64,000 bases of DNA from Candidatus Hydrogenedentota bacterium (GTDB lineage: Bacteria; Hydrogenedentota; Hydrogenedentia; Hydrogenedentales; CAILVY01): positions 24,035 to 88,034 of the forward strand of contig JAKQOG010000290.1 of assembly GCA_029565395.1 (NCBI GenBank). Reading direction: 5' to 3'. Below, piece after piece: positions 37,784 to 62,842 of this stretch. Position numbers and translations under genes: made by a program. Numbering within the stretch: the first letter of the stretch is position 1; each line of letters begins with the position of its first letter. The notes beneath the pieces are model-generated. The model saw nothing but the letters and a program-made list of their open reading frames with translations. It made no database searches and was not told the DNA's origin.

Positions 37784-37850
37784 AGTTTTGGATCTCCATA
37801 CAGAAATACCCTTTAAAGACTCCTCTTATTCAAGCGGAGTTACCATTTAA

Positions 37851-37957
37851 GGGAGGGCGAGGCTCCCGCCGAGCCGTCAAACAAAACATCCAATTATCGT
37901 AGTGTAAGAAGAATATTTTGCTTTTGTTTCACGGCTCGGCAGGAGCCTCGCCCTCCC
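37851..37957. repeat. MITE-like palindromic element, copy 1 (107 bp)
   Basis: Arms GGGAGGGCGAGGCTCCCGCCGAGCCGTCAAACAAAA / TTTTGTTTCACGGCTCGGCAGGAGCCTCGCCCTCCC are near-perfect reverse complements around an AT-rich core. Intergenic, between terC and the oxidoreductase gene. Confidence 0.85.
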
Positions 37958-37960
37958 GGA

Positions 37961-40925: not shown

Positions 40926-42776
40926 TTACTGCTCCGTGGGCGAAAGGAGGAAACGCAGATTGGGCAATGTTTTTCCGTTTTTATCCGTGATTCGCAGCAC
41001 AAAGCCCCAATTCACCTCGGTGTTGCACACCTTCACCAACAGCGGTGTCACCCCCTTGGGAATAGTCACCGACACCGTATCGCGATCCAGGTATGCCGAC
41101 CCTTCCACGGGATAGTCATATACCAGCGTATTGCCCAGCCACACTTTGCCCGCGTCGTTCGTTCCCACACGAAGTTGCGCCGGACACTCCTCGTCAGCGG
41201 CAACATAACACAGCGCATAGGCGCACACCTTTTCGGCGGGCGTGAACACGCGTTTAAAATCGACAAACATTGAATTGCCCGGCGCGGCATACTCCTGCCA
41301 CCGTCCTTTCCCGTTCACGGTGTCATATTCCGCCGAAAGATCTATGCCTTGTTCCGGCGGATACACCATAGTGTGACCGATGGATAATTCAGTGCAGGGA
41401 AAAGGCCCTGCCACCAGCCACCGGGTCTGCGCCCCAAAGAGTTTTTGAAGATTCACCGGTTTGCCGTGGAAATACTGCAAGGCCAAATTCCACCCCTCCG
41501 CCACCTTCGTTGGTTCCAGGGAATTCACCGGAATAAGACCAAAGTCAGGCATGGAGCCCGGCTCGACAAATCGCGGCACCGGCGTCACGCCCAGTTCCTT
41601 CGAATAATCAAGGAGGAACATCTGGCGCAACTCTTTCGCCACCGTTACATAAGGGGGTGACAGGATCACCTCGCGTTTCGCAATAACGTCAAGATAGGCC
41701 TGCAAGTCAGCCGGGCCTGTGTATAGCTCCAATTTGCGCCCCGCCAATTGCTCATAGCAATTATGGCTGTATATCCAGTTGTACCGTTTGCCGGCCATAA
41801 GCGAGCCCGCATAACCCTGCCGGAATTCCTCCAGCGGCATGCCGGGTTCCTGCACCGACTGATAATTAAACCCAAAGGGCCATATGCCCGGCGCAATGGA
41901 ACAATGACTTTTCCAATATGTTTTCGCGCGCGGGCTCAACAGGCGTTGAAACAGGCTGTTGCAGGCCCAGGCATGCCCCAGCATATACCGGATGTTTGGA
42001 TTGCGGTATGTGTGCTCGGTGCAATAATGAATCCCGCCGGGCGCTTGCCGGGCCGCGGCTTCTTCCACCCAGGCAAGGTGGATAACCATGCCCAGGCTGA
42101 ATTCCTGCTCCGGGAACGTAAGAAACACCATGTCGGGGAATTCATCATAGAGAATCCGGATTACACCCGTCATGCGCTCCCGCACCTTTCGAACCAGATC
42201 CTCCCGCGTATAGCCGGCATAGGTATACCCAGGCCAATCGAACTGGTATTGCTCCCCGCAATATTCAATATCCAGGGCAATGCCATTACATCCGGAATCG
42301 CGCGCAAAAATCGCAAACTGCCTGAAATTGTTGTTAATACGCCCCCACGCGGCGTCATTGAACCATTCAAAGAAATGATCAAAGGCAATTTTCAAAAATG
42401 TTTCCGACCCTATACTCCTGCAACTCTCATTCGCACGCTTCGCCTGCTGAAAGGTCTCATCGGATTCCCCAATGGTCCACGGCTTTTTATCTGTTGCCCA
42501 GATATCCGTGCACCACTCCCGCGCCACCTGATCCAGAAAAAATGCCTGCACGCCATGCTGCGCCCAAACCTGGGCGTCCGCAATAATCTGTTCCGGACTT
42601 GCCGAAAAAAGAATCGTCTTGGGGAGCGGCAATTCCGCCGTGGTTCCATACGAAAGCCCCGGCTCCGCCGTTTTTGACGGTTCCACGGCAACATCCGCAC
42701 AAGCACACCCCATCCCCAACAGCACTACGAATAGACACACCCGTGATTCCCACATACTGCCTCCTTTCAGGTACAC
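40926..42776 (-). CDS. Secreted protein of unknown function (616 aa; possible glycoside-hydrolase-like catalytic domain plus C-terminal beta-sandwich)
   Basis: Signal/lipoprotein-like N-terminus (LLGMGCACAD); coding-like composition throughout; no motif I can assign with confidence. Confidence 0.5.
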   Translation of the reverse strand: MYLKGGSMWESRVCLFVVLLGMGCACADVAVEPSKTAEPGLSYGTTAELPLPKTILFSASPEQIIADAQVWAQHGVQAFFLDQVAREWCTDIWATDKKPWTIGESDETFQQAKRANESCRSIGSETFLKIAFDHFFEWFNDAAWGRINNNFRQFAIFARDSGCNGIALDIEYCGEQYQFDWPGYTYAGYTREDLVRKVRERMTGVIRILYDEFPDMVFLTFPEQEFSLGMVIHLAWVEEAAARQAPGGIHYCTEHTYRNPNIRYMLGHAWACNSLFQRLLSPRAKTYWKSHCSIAPGIWPFGFNYQSVQEPGMPLEEFRQGYAGSLMAGKRYNWIYSHNCYEQLAGRKLELYTGPADLQAYLDVIAKREVILSPPYVTVAKELRQMFLLDYSKELGVTPVPRFVEPGSMPDFGLIPVNSLEPTKVAEGWNLALQYFHGKPVNLQKLFGAQTRWLVAGPFPCTELSIGHTMVYPPEQGIDLSAEYDTVNGKGRWQEYAAPGNSMFVDFKRVFTPAEKVCAYALCYVAADEECPAQLRVGTNDAGKVWLGNTLVYDYPVEGSAYLDRDTVSVTIPKGVTPLLVKVCNTEVNWGFVLRITDKNGKTLPNLRFLLSPTEQ

Positions 42777-42816
42777 TCTATATCATGCCCAACTACCAGG
42801 AAACGCTAATCATACG

Positions 42817-43743
42817 ATGAAACCCGGTAACAATAAAACATCTGACCCCAATTGGATCAAAATCCAGGATGATTTTGCCATACTCCGGCCAAAACAACGC
42901 AACCGGTTCCGCATCCTTCAGGTTACCGACTTCCACTCCAATGTCGACGAAATATTGAACGAAAAAACCCGCGCGGACGTCCGGGCCATGGTCCGGCGTT
43001 TCGCCCCGGATCTTCTGGCGGTCACCGGCGATATCTGGTGCGGCGACGACACCCCGGACGCCGCGCCCATGTGGATGCAGCGCGATCTGGATTTTCTGGG
43101 GGGTCTTGACGTCCCATGGGCATTTATTTGGGGAAACCATGATTATGCAGCGGATTTCGAGGCCGCACAACGCCAAATCGCCGCCACACCGAATGCCGTC
43201 GCTCCGCATGGAAACGGCCGCGGAAATTTCCGTGTGGAAGTGCGCCAGGACAGACATCCGCTTCCCGCTTGGGATCTTTTCTTCTTGAATTCCGGCCCGC
43301 AATGGCAACTGCCCCAGGATCTCGCGTGGTTCCAGGAAGAAACCACACGAATAACTCAGGATCGAGGAACAATCGTTCCGGCTATCGCCTATTTTCACAT
43401 CCCTTTGAAAAATTACCAGGACGCCATCGATCAAGGCCGTACTATCGGCGAAGGAACGGAATACATGCTGAATTGGGGCGATGAGGAAGGCCTTGCGGCG
43501 CCAATATTCAAGCAGGCGGGAAACGTCCGGGCCTGTTTCACCGCCCACAGCCATAAAAATGATTTCTGGTTTGAAGAAGACGGTGTGGTGTTCGCCTATG
43601 GACGCGCCACTGGCTATGGCGGCTACGGCGGCGAAGATCTCCCCAAAGGCGGCAAATTACTGGACCTGGATCTTCATTCCGATCATTTTAGTTTCATGAC
43701 CGTCTTTGGCGATGGCACGGTAGAACAAACAACGGTTCGATAA
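42817..43743 (+). CDS. Calcineurin-like metallophosphoesterase
   Basis: Metallophosphatase motifs QVTDFH, GDIWCGDD, GNHDY and the downstream His blocks. Start at ATG 42817 (MKPGNNK), because the longest ORF from 42619 overlaps the divergent upstream gene. Confidence 0.75.
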   Translation: MKPGNNKTSDPNWIKIQDDFAILRPKQRNRFRILQVTDFHSNVDEILNEKTRADVRAMVRRFAPDLLAVTGDIWCGDDTPDAAPMWMQRDLDFLGGLDVPWAFIWGNHDYAADFEAAQRQIAATPNAVAPHGNGRGNFRVEVRQDRHPLPAWDLFFLNSGPQWQLPQDLAWFQEETTRITQDRGTIVPAIAYFHIPLKNYQDAIDQGRTIGEGTEYMLNWGDEEGLAAPIFKQAGNVRACFTAHSHKNDFWFEEDGVVFAYGRATGYGGYGGEDLPKGGKLLDLDLHSDHFSFMTVFGDGTVEQTTVR

Positions 43744-43761
43744 CATTCTCAAGGAATTATT

Positions 43762-43869
43762 GGGAGGGCGAGGCTCCTGCCGAGCCGTAAGACAAAATAT
43801 CCAAATAGCATATATTCCTGCGACAATCCTGATCTTGTTTTAACGGCTCGGCAGGAGCCTCGCCCTCCC
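43762..43869. repeat. MITE-like palindromic element, copy 2 (108 bp)
   Basis: Termini GGGAGGGCGAGGCTCCTGCCGAGCCGT / ACGGCTCGGCAGGAGCCTCGCCCTCCC; lies between convergent genes (metallophosphoesterase and RDD). Confidence 0.85.
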
Positions 43870-44048
43870 ATTCGCACTTTTTCTTTTCAATTAGCTGCTT
43901 CTGCTCATTCCCACGTGCACTTGGGATCGCACCTGCATGCCCGCCGTAGTCACCTGCTTCGCGTGACGAAGAAGGGTCTTCAGCGTGTCACTTTTCTCGT
44001 TCCCAAGTTACATTTTGAAACACACTTGTCTTCAAAGTTTAACTTTGC

Positions 44049-44825
44049 CTAATTCGCTTCTCCTGATTTCCGGAAGATGCTGTCCACCGTGTTACGCAAA
44101 TATTGCTCATCGGTTAATCCGGCGGATGCTTCTTCCGGGAATGCGACCTGTTCTCTGAAATGGTCCGCCAGTTCTCTGTAAAGTGCCACCCGCGCATCGG
44201 GGTCCAGCTCATTCCGGCGCATTAACGCTTGCACCAACAGCGCAACTTCCACGGGCGACACCTGCTGCCGCAGGCGCGCTTCCAGATGCGGATAACTCCG
44301 GAAGGAATTGTATTTATCCGGCAGAAGCTGCTGAAGATCCGGCTGTTTGGGCGTGGGGGTATGCACCACCACCGTGTTCGCCGCCAAATCGCCCAGGCGC
44401 TGCGCATGCCGGCTGAACAACATGGCCGCCCCACCCGCCAAATACAGCATCGGCAGCATATCCACGGTGCGCATCAGATTGCGCATCACGATCTGACTGA
44501 ACTGAAGCCGCAAACCCTGCGCATCCATCACGCGGATCTTGAGCAGGAATTTACCCAGGGTCTGACCATGCCATATCCATTCCAGCAAGATATTGTATCC
44601 GGTATTCAATACAAAGAACGTCAGGATGGAAATGGCCGTGGTGAGATCGCCGGAAAATGACTGCAATATGGAAAACGTGGTGAGTACAACCAAGGCCACG
44701 ACTAATGTAACGCCGAAATCTATCCCCCATGCCAGAAACCGGGCGCTGGGACCCGCCAAAAGCAGTGAAAACTCCACGCCTTCCGGCGTGCGCACGGCCA
44801 AGGTGGCGTTGCGGGGTTCAATCAT
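44049..44825 (-). CDS. RDD-family membrane protein (last gene of the MoxR-associated operon)
   Basis: RDD-domain pattern (R...GQTLGKFLLKIRV...D...) with 3 TM helices; start taken at MIEPRN (44825), overlapping the upstream gene end by 8 nt. Confidence 0.7.
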   Translation of the reverse strand: MIEPRNATLAVRTPEGVEFSLLLAGPSARFLAWGIDFGVTLVVALVVLTTFSILQSFSGDLTTAISILTFFVLNTGYNILLEWIWHGQTLGKFLLKIRVMDAQGLRLQFSQIVMRNLMRTVDMLPMLYLAGGAAMLFSRHAQRLGDLAANTVVVHTPTPKQPDLQQLLPDKYNSFRSYPHLEARLRQQVSPVEVALLVQALMRRNELDPDARVALYRELADHFREQVAFPEEASAGLTDEQYLRNTVDSIFRKSGEAN

Positions 44826-45849
44826 GGGGAGCCGCCTTTCCCGACAGCCTACGCCCGCGCTTTCGCCCCGATCCCAGCAGGAACGCAAATAAAAGAAGCA
44901 ATTCCAGGCTGCCGAACGCTATCTTCAAGGCATAGGGAATAACCGGTTCATGATACTGCGAAAAAAACGATTCCACGATGCCCGCCCAAACCAACAGCAA
45001 CATAACCCCCACGATCAGCGTTACCAGATCGGGACCCGCAGCGCGCAGCCGCTCCCGGAATGATTGTGCGCTGCCCCACCCAATCAGGGCGCCTGCCAGC
45101 ACAAGCCCCGCCTGCCCTGCAATCAGCACCGCAGGCAATTCGATGGAGCCATGCGGCAAGAGCCATCCCGCCAGAAAAGTGCTCTGCCCCGCCAGAATGT
45201 AATCAATGGCCACGCCTCCAAGAATCACCCCGTTGTACAACATCATTATCAGCGTGCCAAGCCCCCATGTGATGCCCAGCGACATGGCGAAAATGCTCAC
45301 CCGGATATTATTCGTCATCAACGCGGCGGCAAACGTAGATCGCGCGCCTTCAAGGCGATCTTCCGTGGAGTGTTCTTCTCTCTCCACACGTTTGGCGGGA
45401 TCATCCTGTAAATGACTGAATTGAACGGGGAATACCGATTCCTTTGCAGCCGGGTCCAGCAGCACCGCGCCCGCGCCAAAAAAACTGCCGATGACCATCG
45501 CGGCCAGAGCGATGAGAAAAGCGCGATACCGCCGGCGGAAAGTCTGCGGAAAGGTTTCAAAAAACCATGCGAGTGGTTTCAAACGATAGGGGGCATCGCG
45601 AATCTCATGAATCTCCGCATACGCGCGCCCCACCAGTCCCTCAAGGTATCCCCGGATTTCCGGTTCCACCGCGAAAGTGCGGATGCGCGCCAAATCCGAT
45701 GCGGCCCGGCGGTACAAATAATAGAACCGGCGGGTTTCCGCAAGATCCATGCGCTGCTCCAGGCGCCGCTCCAGGCGGCTCAGACACTCCTCCAGTTCCT
45801 GCCAGAACGGCTGTTCTTCCCGGACAAAATGGGCGACATCCAAAATCAC
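44818..45849 (-). CDS. SpoIIM-like (DUF95) membrane protein
   Basis: Soluble N-terminal helical region, then a 5-6 TM stage-II-sporulation-M-like core (NNIRVSIFAMSLGITWGLGT...LPHGSIELPAVLIAGQAG). Confidence 0.65.
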   Translation of the reverse strand: MILDVAHFVREEQPFWQELEECLSRLERRLEQRMDLAETRRFYYLYRRAASDLARIRTFAVEPEIRGYLEGLVGRAYAEIHEIRDAPYRLKPLAWFFETFPQTFRRRYRAFLIALAAMVIGSFFGAGAVLLDPAAKESVFPVQFSHLQDDPAKRVEREEHSTEDRLEGARSTFAAALMTNNIRVSIFAMSLGITWGLGTLIMMLYNGVILGGVAIDYILAGQSTFLAGWLLPHGSIELPAVLIAGQAGLVLAGALIGWGSAQSFRERLRAAGPDLVTLIVGVMLLLVWAGIVESFFSQYHEPVIPYALKIAFGSLELLLLFAFLLGSGRKRGRRLSGKAAPHD

Positions 45850-47201
45850 AAGATCTGCCTTTGCTTTATACTCAAGTATTGGGAAACCAATTCCGGCGTC
45901 AGCGACTCGTTTTCCAACAAACCCAGAGCCACTCCCCGCCGGTGCAAGATGCGCTGCAATTCGCGCAGATCACGCCACTGCAAATGCCCGCTCAGGCGCT
46001 TATAGACATCGTCCACGCTGGATACCTCGGAACGATCAAACAAGGGTCCCACGCCCGCGGGCGTCAACATGTTCGCCAGAATCAGATGGCGGCGGGTAAT
46101 CAGATCCATGCTTCGCGCGAAGGTTTCCGAAAGCACGGGATCATCCAGGTTTGTCAGAAACACCAGCAAGGCGCGCCGCCGCAAGCGCGTGCGAATGAAT
46201 GAACATACCTCGTCAAAATCCGGCGTTACATCGTTGGGTTCCAGCGTATAGAGCGCGTCCCGGCAAACCGTGTAATGCTCCCGGCCGTTTCGCGCGCGCA
46301 CAAACCCGTGAATGCGATCGCTAAACGTCAATAATCCGAACAAATCCCCTTGACGCTCCGCCACCATGCCCAAAATCATCGCGGCATGGATAAAACGGTC
46401 CAGTTGTGAAACGGAACCCTGGGCGGGATCCTGAAGGGTGCGTCCGCTCAACCGGGAGGCGTCCAGGATCACATACACTTCCTGCGTCCGCTCCACTTGA
46501 TACACTTTCGTGATCGGATGCGCACGCCGCGCCGTCGCTTTCCAGTGTATGTCTTCAAAACTATCCCCCGGAATATATTCGCGCAATTTTTCAAATTCGC
46601 GGCCTTTGCCAACCCGCCGCCGTGCATGCAATCCGAGCGCGCCCCGGTTCAGGAAAATCGCCGCCACACGGTTGCGCTCGCCCAGCAAGTTCGGATACAC
46701 CCGGAGTTCCACGTGATCCGGAAAGACCCGCCGGCATCTCCAAAATCCTACCACCGAATCCATGGCCGCATAGATATTTTCAAGAAAAAACTCGCCGCGT
46801 TTATGCGGCGTCACCGGCCAATCCAGCCGATATTCCTCCGCTTGTTCGCCAATGGAAACGATCTTCGTCTCCTCCACGCTTTCCACACTGGGCGGAAACG
46901 ACAACCCAACCACCAGCGAACGCGGCTGACGATCCCGGTTGGCAATGTGAATGCCGATCATTCCGGCCCGGTCTTTCGTAAGCCGGAACAGTGGCGCGCC
47001 GCCATTGGTCCGGATGAACTCCAGGTGCAATGCGCCAAACCGGTTCGTGGACAACACCGCATCCACTACAGCCAGAACGGTGAACACCCCCATAATCCCC
47101 AACACCAACAGGGTCCACTCCGGAACGGCGGACACGACCAATGCACACGGCAGGAATACCGCCGCCGTCCAGAATATCAATCTGTTGGTGGGGGCTATCA
47201 T
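45846..47201 (-). CDS. DUF58-domain protein (MoxR partner) with N-terminal TM hairpin
   Basis: DUF58 signature GKGREFEKLREYIPGDSFEDIHWKATARRAHPITKVYQVERTQEVYVILD; ATGA overlaps at both ends. Confidence 0.8.
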   Translation of the reverse strand: MIAPTNRLIFWTAAVFLPCALVVSAVPEWTLLVLGIMGVFTVLAVVDAVLSTNRFGALHLEFIRTNGGAPLFRLTKDRAGMIGIHIANRDRQPRSLVVGLSFPPSVESVEETKIVSIGEQAEEYRLDWPVTPHKRGEFFLENIYAAMDSVVGFWRCRRVFPDHVELRVYPNLLGERNRVAAIFLNRGALGLHARRRVGKGREFEKLREYIPGDSFEDIHWKATARRAHPITKVYQVERTQEVYVILDASRLSGRTLQDPAQGSVSQLDRFIHAAMILGMVAERQGDLFGLLTFSDRIHGFVRARNGREHYTVCRDALYTLEPNDVTPDFDEVCSFIRTRLRRRALLVFLTNLDDPVLSETFARSMDLITRRHLILANMLTPAGVGPLFDRSEVSSVDDVYKRLSGHLQWRDLRELQRILHRRGVALGLLENESLTPELVSQYLSIKQRQIL

Positions 47202-48163
47202 CGCGGAACCGTAATACTCTGCAGCAATTGTTGAATGATTTCAGCACACGTCAGCCCTTCTATTTCATATTCGGGCCGGAGAATAATCCGGTGTTCAAGA
47301 ACCGCCCGCGCCATGCTTTTGATATCGTCCGGCGTGACAAAATCCCGGTTTTGCATCGCCGCGCACACCCGGCTGGAAAGCAACAACGCCTGCGTGGCGC
47401 GCGGCCCCGCGCCCACCATCACGCTACTGTGTTCGCGCGTCTTACGCACGATATCCACCGCATAGCCCAGGAGTTCATCGCGCACCACCACCTCATTCAA
47501 GATCGTCCGCATAAGCGCCAATTGTCCCTCTTCCAGCACCTGCCACACCTCTCCGCGCGCCAACACCGCTTCCGGCGCTTCCAGACCCAGTGTGCGCCGG
47601 GCAAGCGTGAGTTCTTCCTCCCGCTTGGGAGTTTCCATGATAATTTTGAGCATAAACCGGTCCACCTGCGCTTCCGGAAGCGGGTACGTTCCCTCAAACT
47701 CGATGGGGTTCTGCGTCGCGAACACCGTGAAATTGGGCGACAGCGGATGGGTCTCGCGATCTATGGTTACACGCCGCTCCTGCATCGCCTGCAACAGCGC
47801 GGACTGTGTTTTTGCGGGCGCCCGGTTGATTTCATCCGCCAATAGAAACGTCGTGAACACAGGGCCCTTCACCAATTGGAATTCATTGTTCTTCAGATTG
47901 AACACATTCGTCCCAATAATGTCCGCCGGCATAAGATCCGGCGTAAACTGGATGCGGTTGAACTCGCATCCAAGCACCCGCGCCAGCGTCCGCACCAACA
48001 GCGTTTTCGCCACGCCCGGCACGCCCTCCACCAGCGCATGATGATTCGAAAAAATGGCGATAAGCGCCTGATCGATCACCTCGGCGTGTCCAATGATCAC
48101 TTTGCCGATTTCCTGGCGCGCACGGGCCAGCAGATCCTGCAATTGTTCAAGTGTTGAGGTCAC
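47198..48163 (-). CDS. MoxR-family AAA+ ATPase
   Basis: Walker A GVPGVAKT, Walker B/sensor LLADEINRAPAKTQSALLQAMQER, and the MoxR C-terminal lid; 321 aa. Confidence 0.9.
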   Translation of the reverse strand: MTSTLEQLQDLLARARQEIGKVIIGHAEVIDQALIAIFSNHHALVEGVPGVAKTLLVRTLARVLGCEFNRIQFTPDLMPADIIGTNVFNLKNNEFQLVKGPVFTTFLLADEINRAPAKTQSALLQAMQERRVTIDRETHPLSPNFTVFATQNPIEFEGTYPLPEAQVDRFMLKIIMETPKREEELTLARRTLGLEAPEAVLARGEVWQVLEEGQLALMRTILNEVVVRDELLGYAVDIVRKTREHSSVMVGAGPRATQALLLSSRVCAAMQNRDFVTPDDIKSMARAVLEHRIILRPEYEIEGLTCAEIIQQLLQSITVPR

Positions 48164-48166
48164 GGA

Positions 48167-49390
48167 TCATTTCCTTTCTTTTATCAGCCTCTCCATGGTT
48201 TTATAACGCGCCACCAGGGCGGCCGCGTTGTTTTCCGTATCCTGAGCCAACCCCATAATGTCGTTATGTGCCGCGGGAGCAAAGCGCGGATCATGCGCAA
48301 AATCCCGCCGCCATTCCTCATAACAGGTAGTTAACAACCGGCGAACCGGCACACTGCGCCGAACCAGTTGATGCAAGCCGGTAAAAGCTTCCTGTACATT
48401 TTCCGATTCCACCGTCTGTTTCAGATACGCCGCATCGTGCCGGGGCACAAGACTCCACATGCTCTTCCAAACAAATAACAGCCCTGTCACTGCAAAAGCG
48501 ATCAGCGCAAGATCAAGCCGGTAACGCCGGACCAAGTCCATCAACCCCGGCGTATGCACAATGCCAAAATGCGATTCATCCACCACGATTTGTGTATTCG
48601 GGCCCACCAGCCACGTTAAAAACCCCGTCGGACGTTCTTTGCGCAACGCTTCATTACTGATAAAATACGAATCCGCGCACACCACAATGGAGCCGCTGCC
48701 CCACTGCCGCTCAATAATCACCGGAAAATCATCGCGCGCATACACCACGCGCCAATGATCCGCCAGCTTCTCAAAATAAGAAGCGGATCGCCAGGGCAAT
48801 GAGTCCGGAAGTTCCTCAACTTCCGCTTTCTTATTCACAAAAATCTTTTGCGCTTTCTCTGAAAACGCCTTCCCGCTTATTTCAAACCCCCAGCGTTCTT
48901 TGATGTTTACATAGAGTTCCTTTTCCCCCTGTATCGCCTCCTTTTCCGATTCCCCTTCCCGCGTTTTTTCTCTTTCCGCCCGTTCCTGCTCCTCTTTCCA
49001 GTACACGCCGGATAAGGGATAATACGCGATCACCATGCGCCCCCCCGTTAATACAAATCCTTCCGCCGCGCGGATCACTTCCATGGGATCGTCCGTATCC
49101 GGCACCCCTGCCAAAAATAATGTGGTGTTATTCCCCTGGTTCAGTTCCATAATGTTGCGTTCATGCCGGCGCACCTGCAACCCTGGCATCATGGCAAGCG
49201 ATTCGTAAAAGGCCTGTGCACCCATGGGGTCCGCACGGTGTGTCGAATAGGCCGGATAAACGTCGCCATAATCCATACGAAGCGAAAACACCCGCCATAA
49301 TTGCACCAAGGCCAGAAGACCTATCACCACCGCCGCTCCCAACGCCCATGCGGAGCCTCGTTTTCCATATATGCGTGCAGGCGCGGCCAC
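48167..49390 (-). CDS. DUF4350-domain protein (N-terminal TM anchor)
   Basis: DUF4350-like periplasmic domain (GSGSIVVCADSYFISNEAL) and a coiled-coil low-complexity insert; recurrent partner in MoxR/DUF58 neighbourhoods. Confidence 0.65.
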   Translation of the reverse strand: MAAPARIYGKRGSAWALGAAVVIGLLALVQLWRVFSLRMDYGDVYPAYSTHRADPMGAQAFYESLAMMPGLQVRRHERNIMELNQGNNTTLFLAGVPDTDDPMEVIRAAEGFVLTGGRMVIAYYPLSGVYWKEEQERAEREKTREGESEKEAIQGEKELYVNIKERWGFEISGKAFSEKAQKIFVNKKAEVEELPDSLPWRSASYFEKLADHWRVVYARDDFPVIIERQWGSGSIVVCADSYFISNEALRKERPTGFLTWLVGPNTQIVVDESHFGIVHTPGLMDLVRRYRLDLALIAFAVTGLLFVWKSMWSLVPRHDAAYLKQTVESENVQEAFTGLHQLVRRSVPVRRLLTTCYEEWRRDFAHDPRFAPAAHNDIMGLAQDTENNAAALVARYKTMERLIKERK

Positions 49391-49393
49391 GGC

Positions 49394-51184
49394 CTAACCT
49401 CCCACCCGTTCATGACACGCATACACGGCGTCAAAACCGTCCTTGTTCGCTTCATGTTCGCCATACCAGACAGACTCATAGATTCCCGCGCCCTGCCGGA
49501 ACGCCGGAAGCAGTTCCGGACGCGCATGCTGGTGCCGGGCTAATTCCACGCCGTAATCCCGATTCGACTTGAACCGCGCTATCCGAATAAGGTCCAGGCG
49601 GGACATCCGCGCAAGCATCGCCAGGAATAACGCCCGGATCGCCAGACGGCACTCCCCTTGCTCCATCAATGTCTGGGCCATGCCCAGCCAACCCTCTTCC
49701 GGAAGTTGATCCGCCGATGTGTTTTCATCGGCAACATCCGGCACGGGCGTACTCCCCAGAACAGCCAGCACCGGCGTCTCCTGCCGGCGTTGTTTCCATA
49801 AGCGGAACAGCAATACTCCGATCGCGCCGATCAGGATAATGACGAGCACCACCAGTACCACCCGCAAAATATCCTTTATGGAATCCAATGTCCGCGGGGT
49901 TCGGTCCTTGCTGAACACACGATCCCGGTCCAGGAGCCAGTCAAAGAAACGGTCTATTGCATCCACCGTTTTCTTGGCAGCCCCGCGTATTGTCTCCGAA
50001 ATGTTGCGCAACGTCCGTACAATAAATCCCTCCTGGTTCGGATCCGGCGCCGGACGCGGCATGCGCCAGGTATACCGCATGCGGCTGAGTTCCTGATTCA
50101 GCGCCTTGTCCAGTTGCTGCGCCGTCACTGCATTGGGCCGGGCAACAGGCGCCGCCGCATCTTCTTGCGCCGAAACCGGTAAAGCAACCATCATCATTGC
50201 CGCCGTACCCGCGAATATCATCATCCACGCGGACATCCGCCGCACCCGCCGGAGAAGAATACGGAGATCTTCGCCGTTGCGGCGCGAGCGCCCATAAAAA
50301 CACCGCAGCACATACGCCGTCTTTATCGTGGGATCAAGAACCAGATAGGTCATGCCGCAAATAATCGCTATGAAGGTGCTGTTCTGCACGGCATTCCCGG
50401 ATTGCGAGAGGATCGTCTCAACACCCAGAAAGGAATCCAGCATCTGCGCGCCAAACATCAGGCCCGCGCCAAGATTGAGCGCGACGATAATGCCCACCGG
50501 CGCCAACGGCACAAACGCAATGGACAGCAACACCGCGTACAAATACGCCAATCCCCCCAGCAGCAAGGGCGACAATGAATCCATCACGGGCAGAAACGCC
50601 AGGTATAGCCCGGCCATCAACAACACGAGAAAGGGGCTCAAAAGCCATATCACAATATGGTTTTGCGCAGGCCAGAGTTTGGCCTGCGCCGTCGCATGAT
50701 CAAAAACCTCCCGCGCCGATGCGCCTCCGCCATCATCCAGCACCGTCGCATTTTGATAGGTGGCGTACACCCAGCCAAACGGAAACGCCGTCATCACGGC
50801 GAACGGCAGGGTGAAAAAGCCCGTCATCTGAATGATAGCCTGGAACGAAGCGGACCGGAGCCAGCGCCCCGCCGTCAAAGGCGCTGGAGGCTCATTTTTC
50901 AACCCGGCCATGAGCACATGGCAGAACCGTGCCTGCCATGTCTTCATCCAGACAAATAAAACCGCCATGCCCAGCGCCGCCAGCGGCAATATTGTTGTTG
51001 CCCCCGCGCTTTGAAGCATGGCGCCCCAGAACGTAATCGCCCCCGCCACAAACGGCAACGCCCCAATGTAATACACGGCCAGGACCGCCAGCGGCGTTCC
51101 TTTCAACACCAGCACGGCCTCTTCGGCAATTTGCAGACCGGAAGGACTGGTCTCTCGGGAAGGTTGCATCATGAACTGTCCCAA
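49394..51184 (-). CDS. Polytopic membrane protein with C-terminal DUF4129 domain
   Basis: About 10 TM helices, then a cytoplasmic/periplasmic DUF4129-like C-terminus (RALFLAMLARMSRLDLIRIARFKSNRDYGVELAR...YESVWYG). Confidence 0.65.
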   Translation of the reverse strand: MGQFMMQPSRETSPSGLQIAEEAVLVLKGTPLAVLAVYYIGALPFVAGAITFWGAMLQSAGATTILPLAALGMAVLFVWMKTWQARFCHVLMAGLKNEPPAPLTAGRWLRSASFQAIIQMTGFFTLPFAVMTAFPFGWVYATYQNATVLDDGGGASAREVFDHATAQAKLWPAQNHIVIWLLSPFLVLLMAGLYLAFLPVMDSLSPLLLGGLAYLYAVLLSIAFVPLAPVGIIVALNLGAGLMFGAQMLDSFLGVETILSQSGNAVQNSTFIAIICGMTYLVLDPTIKTAYVLRCFYGRSRRNGEDLRILLRRVRRMSAWMMIFAGTAAMMMVALPVSAQEDAAAPVARPNAVTAQQLDKALNQELSRMRYTWRMPRPAPDPNQEGFIVRTLRNISETIRGAAKKTVDAIDRFFDWLLDRDRVFSKDRTPRTLDSIKDILRVVLVVLVIILIGAIGVLLFRLWKQRRQETPVLAVLGSTPVPDVADENTSADQLPEEGWLGMAQTLMEQGECRLAIRALFLAMLARMSRLDLIRIARFKSNRDYGVELARHQHARPELLPAFRQGAGIYESVWYGEHEANKDGFDAVYACHERVGG

Positions 51185-51522
51185 TCATCTTCCAGGATCG
51201 TCTTATGCTCGTGAAACGTCGAAGGCACGGAGAGCAGCGCCTTTCCTATCACAAAAAATGACCCCCACAAAACCAGCACCCCCAACGCTATCCGGAAAAC
51301 CATGCGCAATGATCCAAAATTCCGTTTCTGGTCAAGTTGCGCCTTAGCGGTTTCTTCTGCAATGCACGCCGCACACAATAACCGGTTGCGGTGCTCCGAA
51401 ACACATTCCCGGCAAAAAAAACGCCCGCATTCCGGACACCGCGCCGCCGCCTCGCGCTGCGCATGATTGAAACACCGCGATTGCGCGAAACTCACATGCT
51501 TGCTGTCAACGTGTTGTTCCAT
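51169..51522 (-). CDS. Small zinc-ribbon membrane protein (4-Cys-pair zinc ribbon plus C-terminal TM helix), first gene of the operon
   Basis: 118-aa product: CFNH...CPECGRFFCRECV...CAAC, then TM MVFRIALGVLVLWGSFFVIG. Start taken at MEQHV (51522) within the longer ORF 51169..51957. Confidence 0.5.
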   Translation of the reverse strand: MEQHVDSKHVSFAQSRCFNHAQREAAARCPECGRFFCRECVSEHRNRLLCAACIAEETAKAQLDQKRNFGSLRMVFRIALGVLVLWGSFFVIGKALLSVPSTFHEHKTILEDDWDSS

Positions 51523-51694
51523 CGGATGCCTGAGAGTGTTGCGCATGCCGCCCAACGGCACGCTCCTCAGCCTATGGTAGGTATTCAGGCATCGCAGATC
51601 AATTTTGTTCCCTCCGGAGACAACCACAGCCCGCACGGAGAGGAAGGGGTATGGTATACTCGTGTTTTTCCACAAAATTACGAAGGTTTTGTGA

Positions 51695-53155
51695 ATGTCC
51701 GAAACCCCCATCGTCCTGAGCACGGTGACCGGACGGTATACCCATGCCGCCTTCGGTTTGCGTTGGCTGTATGCCAATCTGGGGCCCTTGAAAGAAAAAA
51801 CAATTATTCGCGAATTCCACCTCCAACAACCGCCTTTGGAAATCGCGGAACGCCTCCTGGCGGAAAAGCCGCGCATTCTCGGCCTCGGCGTATATATCTG
51901 GAACGTGAACCTCATCACCCAGGTGGCGCAAACCATCAAAGGCGTGCAGCCGGACATCTCCCTCGTTCTCGGCGGTCCGGAAATCAGTTTCGAGTACGAA
52001 AATACACCATTATTCGATACCGCCGATTACATTGTTTGCGGGGAAGGCGAAACAGCCTTCGCGCAACTCGCCGAAGCCATTTTGGAGAACCGTTCACCCG
52101 CGCAAAAAGTAATTCAAGCGGATCGGCTCGATGTGGCCCAACTGCAGCTTCCATACGATGCCTATACGGATCTCGATATCACGCGGCGGCTGGTATACGT
52201 GGAAGCCTCGCGGGGCTGTCCATTCCGATGCGAGTTCTGTCTGTCTTCCCTGGATCCCCATGTGCGCGATTTCCCATTGGAACCTTTTCTCGACGCCCTT
52301 AAAACACTCATTGAGCGCGGTGTGCGCAATATTCTCTTCGTGGACCGCACCTTCAACCTGAAAACAGAACGCGCCGATGCCATCCTCCGCTTTTTCCTTG
52401 AACACTGGCGCGAAGGGCTCCGGGTCCATTTTGAGATTGTGCCCGGCCGTCTGAATGAAACCCTGCTGCGCCGCATGGCGGAATTTCCTCCCGAAGGCCT
52501 GCATCTCGAAGTGGGCGTGCAAACCTTTACTCCCGAAGTGCTCGAAAACATCTCCCGGCGGCAGGATAATCTCAAGACGATAGAAACCATCCACTTCCTG
52601 CGCGAACACACCGGCGTTCTGCTCCATGCCGACCTGGTGGCGGGATTGCCCGGCGAATCCTGGGAAAGTTTTGGCGCCAGTTTCGATCAACTGCTGGCCT
52701 TGCGTCCGCATGAAATCCAGGTAGGCATTCTAAAGCGCCTGAAAGGCGCCCCCATCGCGCGGCATATCCCCGGATTCCACATGGTTTTTTCACCCCAAGC
52801 CCCCTACGACATCTTGCAAACGGACCACCTCAATTTCACCCAAATGCAACGCATCAAACGATTCGCACGCTATTTCGACCTGTATTACAACTCAGGTAAT
52901 TTCCCCACAAGCCTGCCGATCCTGTGGCATAGCCGCCCCTCTGCCTTTGAAGCAGGCATGGCCTTTACGGACTACCTGTGGAACACCACCGGACGCACCC
53001 ACGAATTCCCCTTGGCCCAACTCGCCCGCCATCTCTACGATTTCCTGATACAATCCCCTGCGGCTGATCCCGCCGCCATCGCCGAAACCATCAAAAGCGA
53101 CTTCCACCACATCCCTGGCCGCAAAGACAAACTGTCGTTTCTAAAGAATTGCTAA
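51695..53155 (+). CDS. B12-binding radical SAM protein with C-terminal DUF4080
   Basis: N-terminal B12-binding-like domain; radical SAM CxxxCxxC (EASRGCPFRCEFC); conserved DUF4080-type C-terminal extension. Confidence 0.8.
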   Translation: MSETPIVLSTVTGRYTHAAFGLRWLYANLGPLKEKTIIREFHLQQPPLEIAERLLAEKPRILGLGVYIWNVNLITQVAQTIKGVQPDISLVLGGPEISFEYENTPLFDTADYIVCGEGETAFAQLAEAILENRSPAQKVIQADRLDVAQLQLPYDAYTDLDITRRLVYVEASRGCPFRCEFCLSSLDPHVRDFPLEPFLDALKTLIERGVRNILFVDRTFNLKTERADAILRFFLEHWREGLRVHFEIVPGRLNETLLRRMAEFPPEGLHLEVGVQTFTPEVLENISRRQDNLKTIETIHFLREHTGVLLHADLVAGLPGESWESFGASFDQLLALRPHEIQVGILKRLKGAPIARHIPGFHMVFSPQAPYDILQTDHLNFTQMQRIKRFARYFDLYYNSGNFPTSLPILWHSRPSAFEAGMAFTDYLWNTTGRTHEFPLAQLARHLYDFLIQSPAADPAAIAETIKSDFHHIPGRKDKLSFLKNC

Positions 53156-53165
53156 GGACGTTCCC

Positions 53166-54236
53166 TTACAGATCTTCCATCAGACGGGCAATGTCTTCGG
53201 GCGCGGGTAACAACCCTTCAAGTTCTTTTGGCAAAGTAGGGACTATGCAATACTCTGCAACACCGATGGGCTTGGCGGAATTGCGCAAGGCATATTCAAC
53301 AATGGTGGTATTCTTGTCTTTACATAGAATGATTCCGATGGAAGGGTTTTCACCTTCTTCCCGTACAGTGTCATCAAGAATGGCAAGATAAAACTGCATC
53401 TTGCCCACATATTCTGGTTCAAACTCGCCCACCTTCAATTCAAAGGCAACAAGACACCGAAGCTTCCGATGGAAAAGCAGGAGATCAACAAAGTATTCCT
53501 TGCCTGCGACTTCGAGCCGATACTGGCTGCCAATAAAGGCAAACATTCCACCCATGGCGCGAAGGAAATCCTCGACACGAGACAAGATAGCATGTTCGAG
53601 TTCACGTTCAGAATGTTCTTCGCCCAGCCCGAGAAAATCGAACAGGTATTCGTCTCTCAATGCAAGTTTGGCTTGGTCTCGGATGGATTCTGGCAAGGTA
53701 CTATCAAAGTTGGTTTGACTGATAAGAGTCTTTTCATAAGTCTGGTTCTCAATTTGATGAAGGAGAACACGTTTTGTCCATCCCATTCGGCGCGTCATTT
53801 TAATGTAAAATTCTCGCTGAAGTGGATCCTTGCAGTGTTCTAAAATGACTACATTGTGGCTCCAGGCAATTTCTGCAACCAATGGCTGCAGTTTTTCACA
53901 GTCCGCATAAGTAATGTATAAGTTCCTCATATTCCATATGTTACGAACTGAAAATCCCTGAATACCAGGGAACTCATTCTGAAGATCATGCGCCAAATTC
54001 TCTACCACCGCCTTGCCCCAGGATTCCCCCTGCTGACGCTCGACGATCATACGGCCAATATCCCAGTAAAGGGCAATTAACTCCTTGTTGACGGCCTTCA
54101 GTGCGGCATACTGGGCGGACCGTATACGCTCTTTTACATCCCGTAGCAAGTTGGCATACTCAACGGGAACCTGGCCGGGCTGTGACGCTATTTCGGCTTT
54201 GGACTCATTCGCATGGTGTTCTTTTGTCATATGCAA
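53166..54236 (-). CDS. YhcG/DUF1016-family PD-(D/E)XK nuclease-domain protein
   Basis: DUF1016 N-terminal region (YWDIGRMIVERQQ...) and a C-terminal PD-(D/E)XK core (VDLLLFHRKLRCLVAFELKVGEF); local GC (~46%) well below the flanks. Confidence 0.7.
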   Translation of the reverse strand: MHMTKEHHANESKAEIASQPGQVPVEYANLLRDVKERIRSAQYAALKAVNKELIALYWDIGRMIVERQQGESWGKAVVENLAHDLQNEFPGIQGFSVRNIWNMRNLYITYADCEKLQPLVAEIAWSHNVVILEHCKDPLQREFYIKMTRRMGWTKRVLLHQIENQTYEKTLISQTNFDSTLPESIRDQAKLALRDEYLFDFLGLGEEHSERELEHAILSRVEDFLRAMGGMFAFIGSQYRLEVAGKEYFVDLLLFHRKLRCLVAFELKVGEFEPEYVGKMQFYLAILDDTVREEGENPSIGIILCKDKNTTIVEYALRNSAKPIGVAEYCIVPTLPKELEGLLPAPEDIARLMEDL

Positions 54237-54310
54237 CGCATCCCCTCCTCACAAAACATTGCTCCGTAATTGCTCAGCATCATGTATATATATCTTACCA
54301 AACGGTAAAA

Positions 54311-56047
54311 TCAAAAGATACAAAATCCGTCTTCCCCCGCATCGCACGCCTGATACCCCCCGCTATTGTACAACTGCATCAGCCGGAGCAGTTCGGAAAG
54401 ATCGATTTTCCAATCGGCGGGATTATAATCGCTCGAATGCTGCGGGAAGGACCACCGGTTGCCATCACTCAAGCCGTAATCATCCTCGCTTCCAGGATCG
54501 CAGTGATATCCATACGAACGCGCGGGATATGATTGATAAAGCTGTATCCCGCGAAGCAATTCGGAAAGACTGATATGATGGTCGCTGTTAATATCGGCTG
54601 AATGCACCGACGCGGGATGCGATCCATCGGAGGTCAATGTAATGTCCCGGCGCGTAGTGCTTCCGGAAACCACCGTAACCCCGCTGATCGTACGGGAAAC
54701 ATATCCTGGCGCGGAAACCGCCAGCGTATAGGTCCCCGGCAGGAGCATCCGGTGATAATCGCCCACATCCGGATCAGTAATCACCGGATGATCGATTCCC
54801 TGAACGCTTATCCTCGCATACACCGGCGCACCCGTAGAGGCATCGGTGACAACTCCGCGTACCCCCCAATGCACCGTTTCCATATAGGAAAGCATCGATT
54901 CCCGGTTGTACTCCCAAAACTGTCCCAGCGTCGATTGCGCGGGCTTCTTGGTATTGGATAGCTCAATCGTCATCTGATTGTTACTGGCGTACCGGTAGTT
55001 CCAGTCCTGCATCCCCCCATACACCGTGTACCACGCGGCCCCGTTGGTGATCCCGTGCTCAAACAAGAAATTGTTCCACATCGGCGTATTATATTGTGAA
55101 TATACTTCCGCCACTTGAATGAACAGCGCATCATCCGGGGAAATGGTATACGTGTTTGCCGGAGCATCGCCCTCATCAAACGGATAATTCACCACCAGCG
55201 CGCCTGTATGAAAATTCGCGGAAAGCGTGAAACTGTGCTGCGCGGTCCAGCGCATCATGTGCTGCACTTCCGTGGGACGTCCCGGCGCATCGATCATCCC
55301 GCCATCCAGAAGATTTTCCGAGGGGCCGTCCTGAACATAACTCGGGAAGTTCCGGTTCAGATCAAAGCCCTGTGCATTATACCGCGTGCCGTTAGTGAGC
55401 CCGTCCGGATTCATCAAGGGCACAATCCAAATCTCCGTTTCATCCACCAACTGCGTAGCGCGCACCCCATCTTCCGTATACGCGCCATAATTGCTCAGCA
55501 ACCACTTGATCAACTGCAGGCACATCTCCGTGCCAATCGGTTCATCCCCATGGATGGTGGAAACATATTTGAACTCCGGCTCATCCTCCTCCGCATCCGG
55601 ATTGGCCGTAATTTTCACCGCCCAGAGCGTACGCCCGTTCACCGAATCCCCCAGCGAATACAACCGGCAGATGGACGGGTAATCGTTCGCATATTCCTGC
55701 AAGGCCGATGTCAACGAGGAATAACTGTGATACACCCAGACGGCCTTGGATACTTCATCGAACACCGGCGGATTCGGCTGACATTCCACTACCCTATAAG
55801 TCAAACCATGACTTTCGATCTGCCGTAATTCTTCTTCCCGCGCATACACCCGGATCCGGCCCTCCGCCATCCCGTCCACATCAAAGTGATTCCTCACCAA
55901 AAAATCCAGTGTTTCCCTGGAACCTTGTTCCACTTCAATCACATACACCCGCCCCAGGACCAAATCATCCGATGCGGATGAAGCCCCCAAAAGGGAAATT
56001 GCAGCTACAACATACAGTCCAATAAACATGCGCACCACTATCGGCAA
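54311..56047 (-). CDS. Secreted M14-family zinc carboxypeptidase with carboxypeptidase-regulatory-like beta-sandwich and two C-terminal dockerin-like repeats
   Basis: Signal peptide; M14 zinc-ligand block STIHGDEPIG; CarbopepD_reg-like segment GVVTDASTGAPVYARISVQG...PGTYTLAVSAPGY; C-terminal repeats DINSDHHISLSELLRGIQLYQS and DWKIDLSELLRLMQLYNS. Confidence 0.7.
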   Translation of the reverse strand: MPIVVRMFIGLYVVAAISLLGASSASDDLVLGRVYVIEVEQGSRETLDFLVRNHFDVDGMAEGRIRVYAREEELRQIESHGLTYRVVECQPNPPVFDEVSKAVWVYHSYSSLTSALQEYANDYPSICRLYSLGDSVNGRTLWAVKITANPDAEEDEPEFKYVSTIHGDEPIGTEMCLQLIKWLLSNYGAYTEDGVRATQLVDETEIWIVPLMNPDGLTNGTRYNAQGFDLNRNFPSYVQDGPSENLLDGGMIDAPGRPTEVQHMMRWTAQHSFTLSANFHTGALVVNYPFDEGDAPANTYTISPDDALFIQVAEVYSQYNTPMWNNFLFEHGITNGAAWYTVYGGMQDWNYRYASNNQMTIELSNTKKPAQSTLGQFWEYNRESMLSYMETVHWGVRGVVTDASTGAPVYARISVQGIDHPVITDPDVGDYHRMLLPGTYTLAVSAPGYVSRTISGVTVVSGSTTRRDITLTSDGSHPASVHSADINSDHHISLSELLRGIQLYQSYPARSYGYHCDPGSEDDYGLSDGNRWSFPQHSSDYNPADWKIDLSELLRLMQLYNSGGYQACDAGEDGFCIF

Positions 56048-62697: not shown

Positions 62698-62719
62698 CCC
62701 GGACCGTTTAATAGAGATT

Positions 62720-62826
62720 GGGAGGGCGAGGCTCTCGCCGAGCCGTAAAACTAAACAACCCAATGCAATATGATTAAACAATAATCCCGATCTTGTTTGA
62801 CGGCTCGACGGGAGCCTCGCCCTCCC
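62720..62826. repeat. MITE-like palindromic element, copy 3 (107 bp)
   Basis: Termini GGGAGGGCGAGGCTCTCGCCGAGCCGT / ACGGCTCGACGGGAGCCTCGCCCTCCC; lies between convergent queF and udk. Confidence 0.85.
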
Positions 62827-62842
62827 ATACACAGGGAAATGA

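Follow-up and report, generated by a model that had tools for sequence, protein, structure and literature searches.

A widespread MoxR–DUF58 membrane operon and its seven-gene copy in a Hydrogenedentota bacterium

We analysed a stretch of 64,000 nucleotides (nt) from a Candidatus Hydrogenedentota bacterium (contig JAKQOG010000290.1), hereafter called the window. At positions 44049-51522 the map of open reading frames (ORFs) contains seven consecutive minus-strand ORFs, which lead from a B-box zinc finger gene at the head to an RDD gene at the end, by way of genes for a DUF4129 protein, a DUF4350 protein, a MoxR-type ATPase, a DUF58 protein and a SpoIIM-like protein (Table 1). This copy is an ordinary, shortened member of a widespread uncharacterised operon, whose genes are tightly coupled, encoded together and inherited together in a fixed order across phyla.

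In the window, the junction gaps are, in gene order, -4, +3, +3, -4, -4 and -8 nt. Together with the ORF coordinates, they bear out the proposal of the initial annotation that the locus is one tightly coupled seven-gene operon on the minus strand. The six families that it had named (DUF4129, DUF4350, MoxR, DUF58, SpoIIM and RDD) were all confirmed by Pfam search, and six of its gene starts stand. The DUF4129 protein shares 100% identity with an NCBI protein assigned to a Candidatus Hydrogenedentes metagenome-assembled genome. For the DUF4129 gene, the start at 51184 is an upstream in-frame TTG; the ATG at 51172, which gives an ATGA overlap with the head gene and agrees with the starts of orthologues, is preferred.

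Gene order and distribution

A locus survey was carried out by scanning the alignment of the SpoIIM-like clade against one genome per GTDB species. At least 582 loci were confirmed among 600 matched stretches, and gene order was mapped by tblastn on the best 80 of them. We observed an almost invariant order in these 80: three upstream genes (u1, u2 and u3), then B-box, DUF4129, DUF4350, MoxR, DUF58, SpoIIM and RDD. All ten genes were present in 42 of the 80 loci and all seven in 48, with median junction gaps of -7 to +16 nt. In five homologues on long contigs, for which the neighbours were annotated with Pfam, gene order was identical throughout. Such an arrangement is far beyond chance. The order of the seven genes therefore recurs across genomes, and the four accessory genes, which had been presented as if they took the place of a VWA protein at this locus, are fixed members of a widespread operon that usually has three more genes upstream.

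By record label, the best 80 loci belong to at least six phyla: Hydrogenedentota, Desulfobacterota, Verrucomicrobiota, Acidobacteriota, Planctomycetota and SAR324 are represented, and single loci carry the labels Methylomirabilota and Binatia. Some metagenome-assembled genomes carrying the operon bear implausible taxon labels, namely Klebsiella, Bifidobacteriaceae, Saccharimonadales and Nitrospirales (L007, L041, L056, L083 and L039), and the Nitrospirales-labelled locus shares 70-93% identity with the Hydrogenedentes window. Such labels point to wrongly binned contigs or wrongly named bins.

With close relatives set aside, the median identity to the window proteins was 71% for MoxR, 58% for the SpoIIM-like protein, 54% for RDD, 49% for DUF58, 45% for the B-box protein and 33% for both DUF4129 and DUF4350. 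This unequal but high conservation is typical of a housekeeping complex. No flanking gene family recurred in the five Pfam-annotated loci, so that the operon looks self-contained.

The first gene of the ten-gene form, u1, encodes a protein with GYF_2, zinc-ribbon and RDD parts; u2 encodes a zinc-ribbon protein with a weak B-box and three transmembrane (TM) helices, and u3 a polytopic protein without Pfam family. At one locus (L006, 6317-7360), u1 is replaced, in the same position, by a zinc-ribbon protein with a polytopic part resembling DUF975, UPF0259 and GPDPase_memb, a membrane domain that looks unrelated to the usual one. When the whole 64-kb window was searched with tblastn, u1 to u3 were absent, the B-box region being the sole match. 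In the closest relative, L007 (among the best 80, SpoIIM-like protein 83% identical), a B12-binding radical SAM/DUF4080 neighbour likewise stands in place of u1-u3. Because this neighbour lies at the same place in both, the seven-gene form is a lineage trait of the window and L007. A few Verrucomicrobiota loci (L031, L053) also lack u1-u3.

Table 1. The operon and its surroundings in the window (domain layouts and topologies are predicted; aa, amino acids)
Feature	Position	Strand	Start	Length	Description
Head B-box gene	51169-51522	-	ATG	117 aa	N-terminal cytoplasmic two-zinc finger, TM helix 74-92, short periplasmic tail
DUF4129 gene	49394-51172	-	ATG	592 aa	N-terminal all-helical membrane domain (about 1-330), TM helix 438-456, C-terminal cytoplasmic DUF4129 domain (about 490-592)
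DUF4350 gene	48167-49390	-	GTG	407 aa	TM helix, extracytoplasmic domain of about 260 aa, second TM helix, cytoplasmic tail of about 100 aa
MoxR gene	47198-48163	-	GTG	321 aa	Soluble MoxR-type AAA+ ATPase, no TM segment
DUF58 gene	45846-47201	-	ATG	451 aa	N-terminal two-helix membrane hairpin (TM 8-49), then cytoplasmic VWA-type domain
SpoIIM-like gene	44818-45849	-	GTG	343 aa	Cytoplasmic three-helix N-terminal domain and six TM helices
RDD gene	44049-44825	-	ATG	258 aa	RDD-family membrane protein, soluble C-terminal domain of about 100 aa; last of operon
Divergent intergenic region	51523-51694			172 bp	Between operon and radical SAM gene; presumed promoter region
B12-binding radical SAM/DUF4080 gene	51695-53155	+			Divergent upstream neighbour (Pfam)
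Metallophos (metallophosphoesterase) gene	42619-43743	+			Convergent downstream neighbour (Pfam)
Inverted repeat TGGGAGGGCGAGGCTCCTGCCGAGCCGT	43761-43870			28-nt arms, 54-nt spacer	Perfect repeat in the gap between the RDD stop and the Metallophos gene

Predicted products and surroundings of the operon

TM segments were predicted in six of the seven products, MoxR being the exception, where five membrane proteins had initially been counted; the broader claim, that most products are membrane proteins around a MoxR/DUF58 pair, is supported. The segments number one in the B-box protein, at least six in DUF4129, two each in DUF4350 and DUF58, five to six in the SpoIIM-like protein, and one strong and two weaker in RDD. 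In NCBIfam, six of the seven proteins were without a specific model, and only generic AAA+ relatives were found.

MoxR matched AAA_3 with 214 bits and AAA_lid_2 with 73.9 bits; its Walker A (GVPGVAKT) and Walker B (LLADEINR) motifs are intact, and its nearest PDB match is 2R44 (E = 9e-79). By these marks it is a canonical AAA_3 ATPase of the MoxR-proper type. Its neighbour matched DUF58 with 76.3 bits (gathering cut-off (GA) 23.4), as did all 36 of 36 orthologues. VWA_2 was matched at E <= 1 in 19 of the 36 (best 1.3e-4), and the Rhizobium homologue passed the cut-off for VWA_2 (27.4, GA 27) and stayed below that for VWA_CoxE (21.4, GA 26.4). We also observed a pattern resembling a metal-ion-dependent adhesion site (MIDAS), D247-x-S249-R-L-S252 ... 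L-T350-x-L-D-D354, each half following a hydrophobic strand. This pattern is 90-100% conserved, without variation at D247, S249, T350 and D354 and with at least 90% conservation at S252 and D353. The initial annotation had held that the VWA partner of MoxR was absent. The VWA_2 matches and the MIDAS-like pattern point instead to DUF58 itself as a VWA-type protein and the predicted partner of MoxR, so that no VWA protein is missing; a hidden VWA domain was among the findings that the initial annotation had named as refuting its view. Given its N-terminal two-helix hairpin, the VWA domain would be expected on the cytoplasmic face, on the side of MoxR. Sequence and profile searches of the PDB gave no solved relative of the DUF58, DUF4350 or SpoIIM-like proteins.

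The head protein came just below the cut-off for zf-B_box (23.3 bits, GA 24.1) and also below that for ANCHR-like_BBOX (21.3, GA 27). An alignment of 29 orthologues has C17, H20, C29, C32, C37, C40, C50, C53 and P100 in every sequence, and H44 and H104 in at least 90%. The spacing of the ligands, C-x2-H-x8-C-x2-C-x4-C-x2-C-x3-H-x5-C-x2-C, is the cross-brace pattern of a two-zinc B-box; the protein is thus, from its eight-ligand spacing, a B-box-type two-zinc finger with predicted zinc sites, rather than the Cys4-pair zinc ribbon first described. The TM helix is followed by a conserved tail motif, P-x2-F-H-[ED]-G-T-x-W. The conservation of the protein sequence across phyla shows that the ORF is real and translated, and it encodes a small protein of zinc-binding type, as had been supposed. 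At least 6531 clusters match the profile of the family, and some orthologues are annotated as PF22586. Some orthologues of about 108 aa with the same B-box and TM layout (P0260, P0262) are named 'rhomboid family protein' by NCBI, without a rhomboid core; the name presumably comes from a model that matches the zinc finger at the N-terminus of some rhomboids.

The topology of the head protein had been called anti-sigma-like. The motif of zinc-binding anti-sigma (ZAS) factors, H-x3-C-x2-C, is absent from the alignment of the 29 orthologues. No sigma-factor gene was called inside the operon or immediately next to it in any of the five loci annotated with Pfam, or among the window genes scanned between 40926 and 56047. 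The likeness is therefore topological only, and a zinc-binding anti-sigma factor was rejected.

In the DUF4129 protein, the Pfam match (35.6 bits, GA 24.8) covers only the C-terminal 70 of 592 aa. The N-terminal membrane domain matched no Pfam family in any of 65 orthologues, and Transglut_core was found neither in the window protein nor in these 65, DUF4129 alone being detected. Between the membrane domain and TM helix 438-456 lies a predicted periplasmic helical segment with a conserved W-R-x-P motif, and an acidic linker joins that helix to the C-terminal domain. An AlphaFold model built on the 65 sequences was entirely helical (mean predicted local distance difference test (pLDDT) score 86.4). 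At the level of fold, it suggests a membrane domain like CysZ and the choline-transporter-like (CTL) proteins, and a HEPN-like C-terminal bundle. For this bundle, Foldseek gave a probability of 1.0 and TM-scores of 0.54-0.66 against HEPN, with E > 0.1. The catalytic R-x4-6-H motif is not conserved in the HEPN-like domain, which has no conserved His; a HEPN nuclease was rejected on this ground, and the modelled bundle is for the same reason probably a protein-binding module. Its invariant residues are W495, R513, A514, K535, Y540 and W569-Y570-G571.

The family of long DUF4129 proteins comprises 1660 representatives of 50%-identity clusters at E <= 1e-30. In one relative (L004, 9001-10540), the gene falls into two pieces, a membrane part of 394 aa and a DUF4129 part of 85 aa, perhaps through a frameshift, perhaps as a genuine split. 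This arrangement is reminiscent of the separate DUF805 and short DUF4129-like genes that lie upstream of DUF4350 in Rhizobium and Paracoccus.

The DUF4350 protein passed its Pfam cut-off (35.0 bits, GA 30.4); the family was matched in 31 of 31 orthologues, and ABC_transp_aux weakly in two. A relationship of DUF4350 to GldG and flavodoxin-like folds was reported from HHpred (PMC5898192).

The SpoIIM-like protein scored 115.1 bits against SpoIIM (PF01944), and its N-terminal domain is DUF8413 in precomputed annotation. Its structure model (pLDDT 74.4) has a three-helix N-terminal bundle and six TM helices. The polar residues N181, N206, H233, E237, R269, D274, E293 and Q298 do not vary between Hydrogenedentes and the homologues of Rhizobium and Paracoccus (27-30% identity); the predicted topology places H233, E237, E293 and Q298 within the TM helices, toward their periplasmic half. 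E79, H81 and H300 are found in the close clade only. A metal site made of E79, H81, H233, E237 and H300 was considered and downgraded, since three of the five residues are not kept in the Rhizobium and Paracoccus homologues. No catalytic peptidase signature is conserved in this protein or in the N-terminal domain of the DUF4129 protein. The clade holds at least 5322 clusters at 90% identity (E <= 1e-5). In related loci the RDD gene (65.4 bits in the window) always lies directly downstream of the SpoIIM-like gene; this fixed RDD partner and the N-terminal DUF8413 domain are features of the SpoIIM clade of this operon.

The guanine-plus-cytosine (GC) content of the operon, 0.54-0.58, is near that of its flanks. 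The inverted-repeat element TGGGAGGGCGAGGCTCCTGCCGAGCCGT occurs three times in the window (43761-43870, 37850-37958 and 62719-62827), each time with a spacer of about 54 nt and at most two mismatches per arm, where none would be expected by chance. The copy that was examined, at 43761-43870, is intergenic and resembles a dispersed palindromic element of the REP or MITE type. It marks the 3' boundary of the operon, and may be a bidirectional terminator. On the other side, GC content dips to 0.46-0.48 at 53000-54500, whereas it is about 0.55 in the surroundings. This stretch, which holds a minus-strand YhcG/DUF1016 PDDEXK-nuclease gene (53166-54236), may be a small acquired island.

A proposed membrane-tethered motor and its alternatives

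The explanation that we favour, with a probability of about one half, is that the seven genes encode one self-contained inner-membrane machine, in which a membrane-tethered MoxR–VWA motor would assemble or gate a transmembrane complex that acts on the envelope. The initial suggestion of a machine for the quality control or assembly of membrane proteins, though tentative, is compatible with the data. Domain type, hydropathy and the positive-inside rule would place MoxR on the cytoplasmic side, along with the VWA domain of DUF58, the finger of the B-box protein, the DUF4129 domain, the tails of DUF4350 and RDD, and the N-terminal bundle of the SpoIIM-like protein. The predicted periplasmic parts are the DUF4350 domain, the conserved tail of the B-box protein, the W-R-x-P segment of the DUF4129 protein and, in the SpoIIM-like protein, the cluster of polar H/E/Q/N residues. 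By analogy with characterised MoxR–VWA pairs, the VWA domain of DUF58, anchored by its hairpin, would recruit a MoxR hexamer to the membrane, where MoxR, at the expense of ATP, would put together a hetero-oligomeric complex of co-encoded membrane proteins or change its conformation. This complex would consist of the CysZ/CTL-like DUF4129 protein, DUF4350, the SpoIIM-like protein and RDD, and the B-box finger would probably act as a cytoplasmic peptide-binding adaptor or regulator. The output would most likely be membrane or envelope homeostasis, that is, transport or gating of small solutes or lipid head groups, or envelope remodelling. We favour this output because of the CysZ/CTL-like fold, the GldG-like relationship of DUF4350 and the envelope phenotypes of cmd and Bat mutants; transcriptional signalling and phage defence appear less likely. 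The earlier proposal from comparative genomics that DUF4350–MoxR–vWA operons serve secretion or membrane remodelling (PMC5898192) also speaks for the explanation, as do the close packing, fixed order and high conservation of the genes, the self-contained look of the operon, the VWA-type DUF58 with its hairpin, the intact Walker motifs of MoxR, the TM segments in six products, and the related gene sets of Rhizobium, Paracoccus and mycobacteria.

Several observations weigh against this explanation. TM segments and topology come from a simple hydropathy script with the positive-inside rule. The likeness of the DUF4129 membrane domain to CysZ is weak in Foldseek (probability 0.75, TM-score 0.48, E > 0.1), and no EI24/CysZ match was obtained with Pfam in the 65 orthologues. 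The MIDAS of DUF58 is a variant, D-x-S-x-x-S, one residue longer than the canonical D-x-S-x-S. A scan for the sigma-70 consensus found no promoter site in 51523-51694, so that a promoter there is placed by position alone. Terminator-like hairpins with T-runs lie on the minus strand within the B-box (51420-51440) and DUF58 (46793-46810) coding regions. There are 20 terminator-like hairpins in the region, compared to 13.9 +/- 3.8 in shuffled sequence; as this total is not above the shuffled expectation, the internal ones are probably coincidences of coding sequence. Finally, u1-u3 are dispensable or encoded elsewhere, since the window lineage lacks them, and this weakens a model of fixed stoichiometry.

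A more specific version is tentative, and we hold it to be doubtful. It would make the operon the core of a phylum-spanning inner-membrane machine, in which the membrane-tethered MoxR–VWA motor couples cytoplasmic ATP hydrolysis to an activity facing the periplasm, with B-box fingers as regulators. The CysZ/CTL-like subunit could provide this activity as gated transport, or the SpoIIM-like protein could provide it as catalysis at its conserved His/Glu cluster.

Characterised MoxR–VWA pairs, such as NorQD, CoxDE and BchI/D, often mature metal centres. The pair could in the same way load metal into the SpoIIM-like protein as its client, after the manner of NorQ/NorD, CoxD/CoxE and magnesium chelatase. 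That protein is the most conserved membrane component (58% across phyla), and H233, E237, E293 and Q298 are kept even in homologues of 27% identity; but only one His and two Glu are conserved across the family, H300, H81 and E79 being restricted to the close clade, and neither a recognisable metalloenzyme motif nor a Pfam or PDB relative with a metal site was found, which makes metal insertion unlikely. Conserved elements predicted on both membrane faces would also suit a novel apparatus for protein secretion or surface assembly, with DUF4350 as a GldG-like periplasmic subunit. The proposal made for archaeal DUF4350–MoxR–vWA operons (PMC5898192) speaks for it, DUF4350 being confirmed here and ABC_transp_aux weakly matched twice. 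We consider it quite unlikely, as the inspected loci have no gene for secreted, Ig-like or S-layer cargo in or beside the operon and no outer-membrane component, though most carriers are from diderm phyla, and as the Ig-like/COG4743 proteins of the archaeal model are absent.

The predicted topology of the B-box protein, with its zinc finger in the cytoplasm and, beyond a single TM helix, a short conserved tail in the periplasm, invites a role in transmembrane signalling or regulated proteolysis, either anti-sigma-like or as substrate or adaptor of a membrane protease. The naming of some orthologues as rhomboid family proteins points the same way, and Burroughs, Iyer and Aravind are said to have described, in 2011, a partnership of prokaryotic B-box domains with membrane peptidases, which we take as a lead, not as evidence. 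Besides the missing sigma gene, ZAS motif and peptidase signatures, no transcription factor or recognisable peptidase was found in or directly beside the operon in the five annotated loci, or between 40926 and 56047 in the window, and this role is very improbable. The least credible alternative is a MoxR–vWA-type system for defence against phage or for biological conflict. A link to conflict has been drawn for ternary MoxR–vWA systems (work cited in PMC12067865), MoxR scores 45 bits on the bpMoxR model, and the modelled fold of the DUF4129 domain is HEPN-like. A defence system was nevertheless rejected: no protein of the seven had a PADLOC match, both sequence and synteny are very highly conserved across phyla, the operon and its flanks agree in GC content, the HEPN-like domain lacks a conserved R-x4-6-H, and there is no gene for a nuclease or protease effector or for a pore.

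Catalogues have listed MoxR–DUF58 pairs for some twenty years (Snider and Houry 2006), and a 2025 review still states the role of DUF58 as unknown and functionally unassigned. The operon family, present in several hundred species of several phyla, offers the pair fixed, co-inherited candidate partners: the B-box–TM protein, the CysZ-like DUF4129 protein, DUF4350, the SpoIIM-like protein and RDD. Because distant versions exist in the genetically tractable Rhizobium, Paracoccus and mycobacteria, the question can be tested directly. The locus of the window adds little alone; its main use is as evidence that u1-u3 are dispensable in cis. To a specialist the finding will not be surprising, yet it brings concrete partners and cultured organisms to the MoxR–DUF58 question. 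If the more specific version is true, the inner-membrane machine would found a class of its own among energised systems of envelope homeostasis, and would give the long-orphan pair its first defined clients.

Comparison with known systems

A protein-level search of plasmids returned 54 records, 52 from Rhizobium and 2 from Paracoccus. In these, the operon reads DUF805, a hypothetical protein of about 250 aa, another of about 430 aa, MoxR, DUF58, stage II sporulation protein M and RDD. On the megaplasmids of R. leguminosarum/etli and Paracoccus aminovorans (L087, L088), the six-gene core has the same order as in the window, on one strand and closely packed. Identity to the window proteins is 45-46% for MoxR, 26% for DUF58, 27-29% for SpoIIM and 31-33% for RDD. 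The Rhizobium hypotheticals matched DUF4129 (E = 6e-4) and DUF4350 (E = 8e-7), both with scores below the gathering cut-offs; in Paracoccus, DUF4129 was matched at E = 0.025 and the protein of about 440 aa had no Pfam match. An hhalign comparison of the DUF4129 profile with the 251-aa Rhizobium protein was not significant. Unlike in the window, the head gene encodes a DUF805 membrane protein rather than a B-box–TM protein, and the DUF4129-like protein, of about 250 aa, is without the CysZ-like membrane domain.

A comparable set exists in mycobacteria. In M. chelonae, adjacent loci (BB28_RS01875–01900, corresponding to MAB_0386c–0392c) are annotated as a membrane protein and five core families, namely DUF4350, MoxR, DUF58, stage II sporulation protein M and RDD, all co-repressed 6- to 8-fold in one RNA-seq data set (PMC8191103). 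These loci correspond to the Rv3689–Rv3695 cluster, known here from annotation tables only. Its c-suffix tags indicate mixed strands (Rv3694c versus Rv3693 and Rv3695), unlike the single strand of the window operon, and the table names neither a B-box head gene nor DUF4129. Orthology with this cluster is putative, being read from annotation. In a published mycobacterial data table, Rv3694c and Rv3695 were recovered by co-immunoprecipitation of the divisome-associated protein Rv0954.

In the Bat and cmd operons (B. fragilis BatI, R. leguminosarum cmdA-D (RL3499-3502) and Borrelia bb0170-0176), MoxR and DUF58 also lead inner-membrane proteins, and mutants show defects of envelope, morphology or aerotolerance (PMC5700661). 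Bat operons differ by separate VWA+TM proteins (BatA/B), the TPR protein BatC, BatD and SH3 proteins, none of which is found here (Pfam VWA, BatA/D and TPR had no match in any of the seven window products), whereas the window has DUF4129, DUF4350, SpoIIM, RDD and the B-box protein.

The archaeal arCOG01314 (DUF4350)–MoxR–vWA operons, proposed as a secretion or membrane-remodelling system (Makarova et al. 2015, PMC5898192), share with the window an operon that combines DUF4350, a COG0714 MoxR and a vWA protein. Makarova et al. also noted bacterial SpoIIM homologues beside vWA and COG0714 genes, and described the vWA proteins of such operons as fusions of an Ig-like with a vWA domain. The archaeal system adds Ig-like/S-layer-type proteins (COG4743), and is without DUF4129, RDD, B-box and SpoIIM; among the seven window products, no Pfam match to Ig-like or S-layer proteins (COG4743, pfam07760) was obtained. 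Apart from the parts mentioned by Makarova et al. and the two mycobacterial data tables, our literature search found no study of this operon.

Clusters of MoxR, DUF58 and transglutaminase, such as the bifidobacterial PFNA cluster, resemble the window in having a MoxR/DUF58 pair with a polytopic membrane protein. In the Pseudomonas TgpA type, a polytopic membrane protein that ends in a cytoplasmic DUF4129 domain accompanies the MoxR/DUF58 pair. The window operon differs from the TgpA type in that it has no transglutaminase core and, according to the structure model, a CysZ/CTL-like membrane fold instead. With SpoIIM of B. subtilis, which acts in SpoIID/M/P engulfment, it shares the Pfam family PF01944, but neither SpoIID nor SpoIIP occurs in the window operon or in related loci, and the carriers belong to non-sporulating diderm phyla. 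We conclude that this operon family is a distinct, uncharacterised variant within the MoxR–VWA kind.

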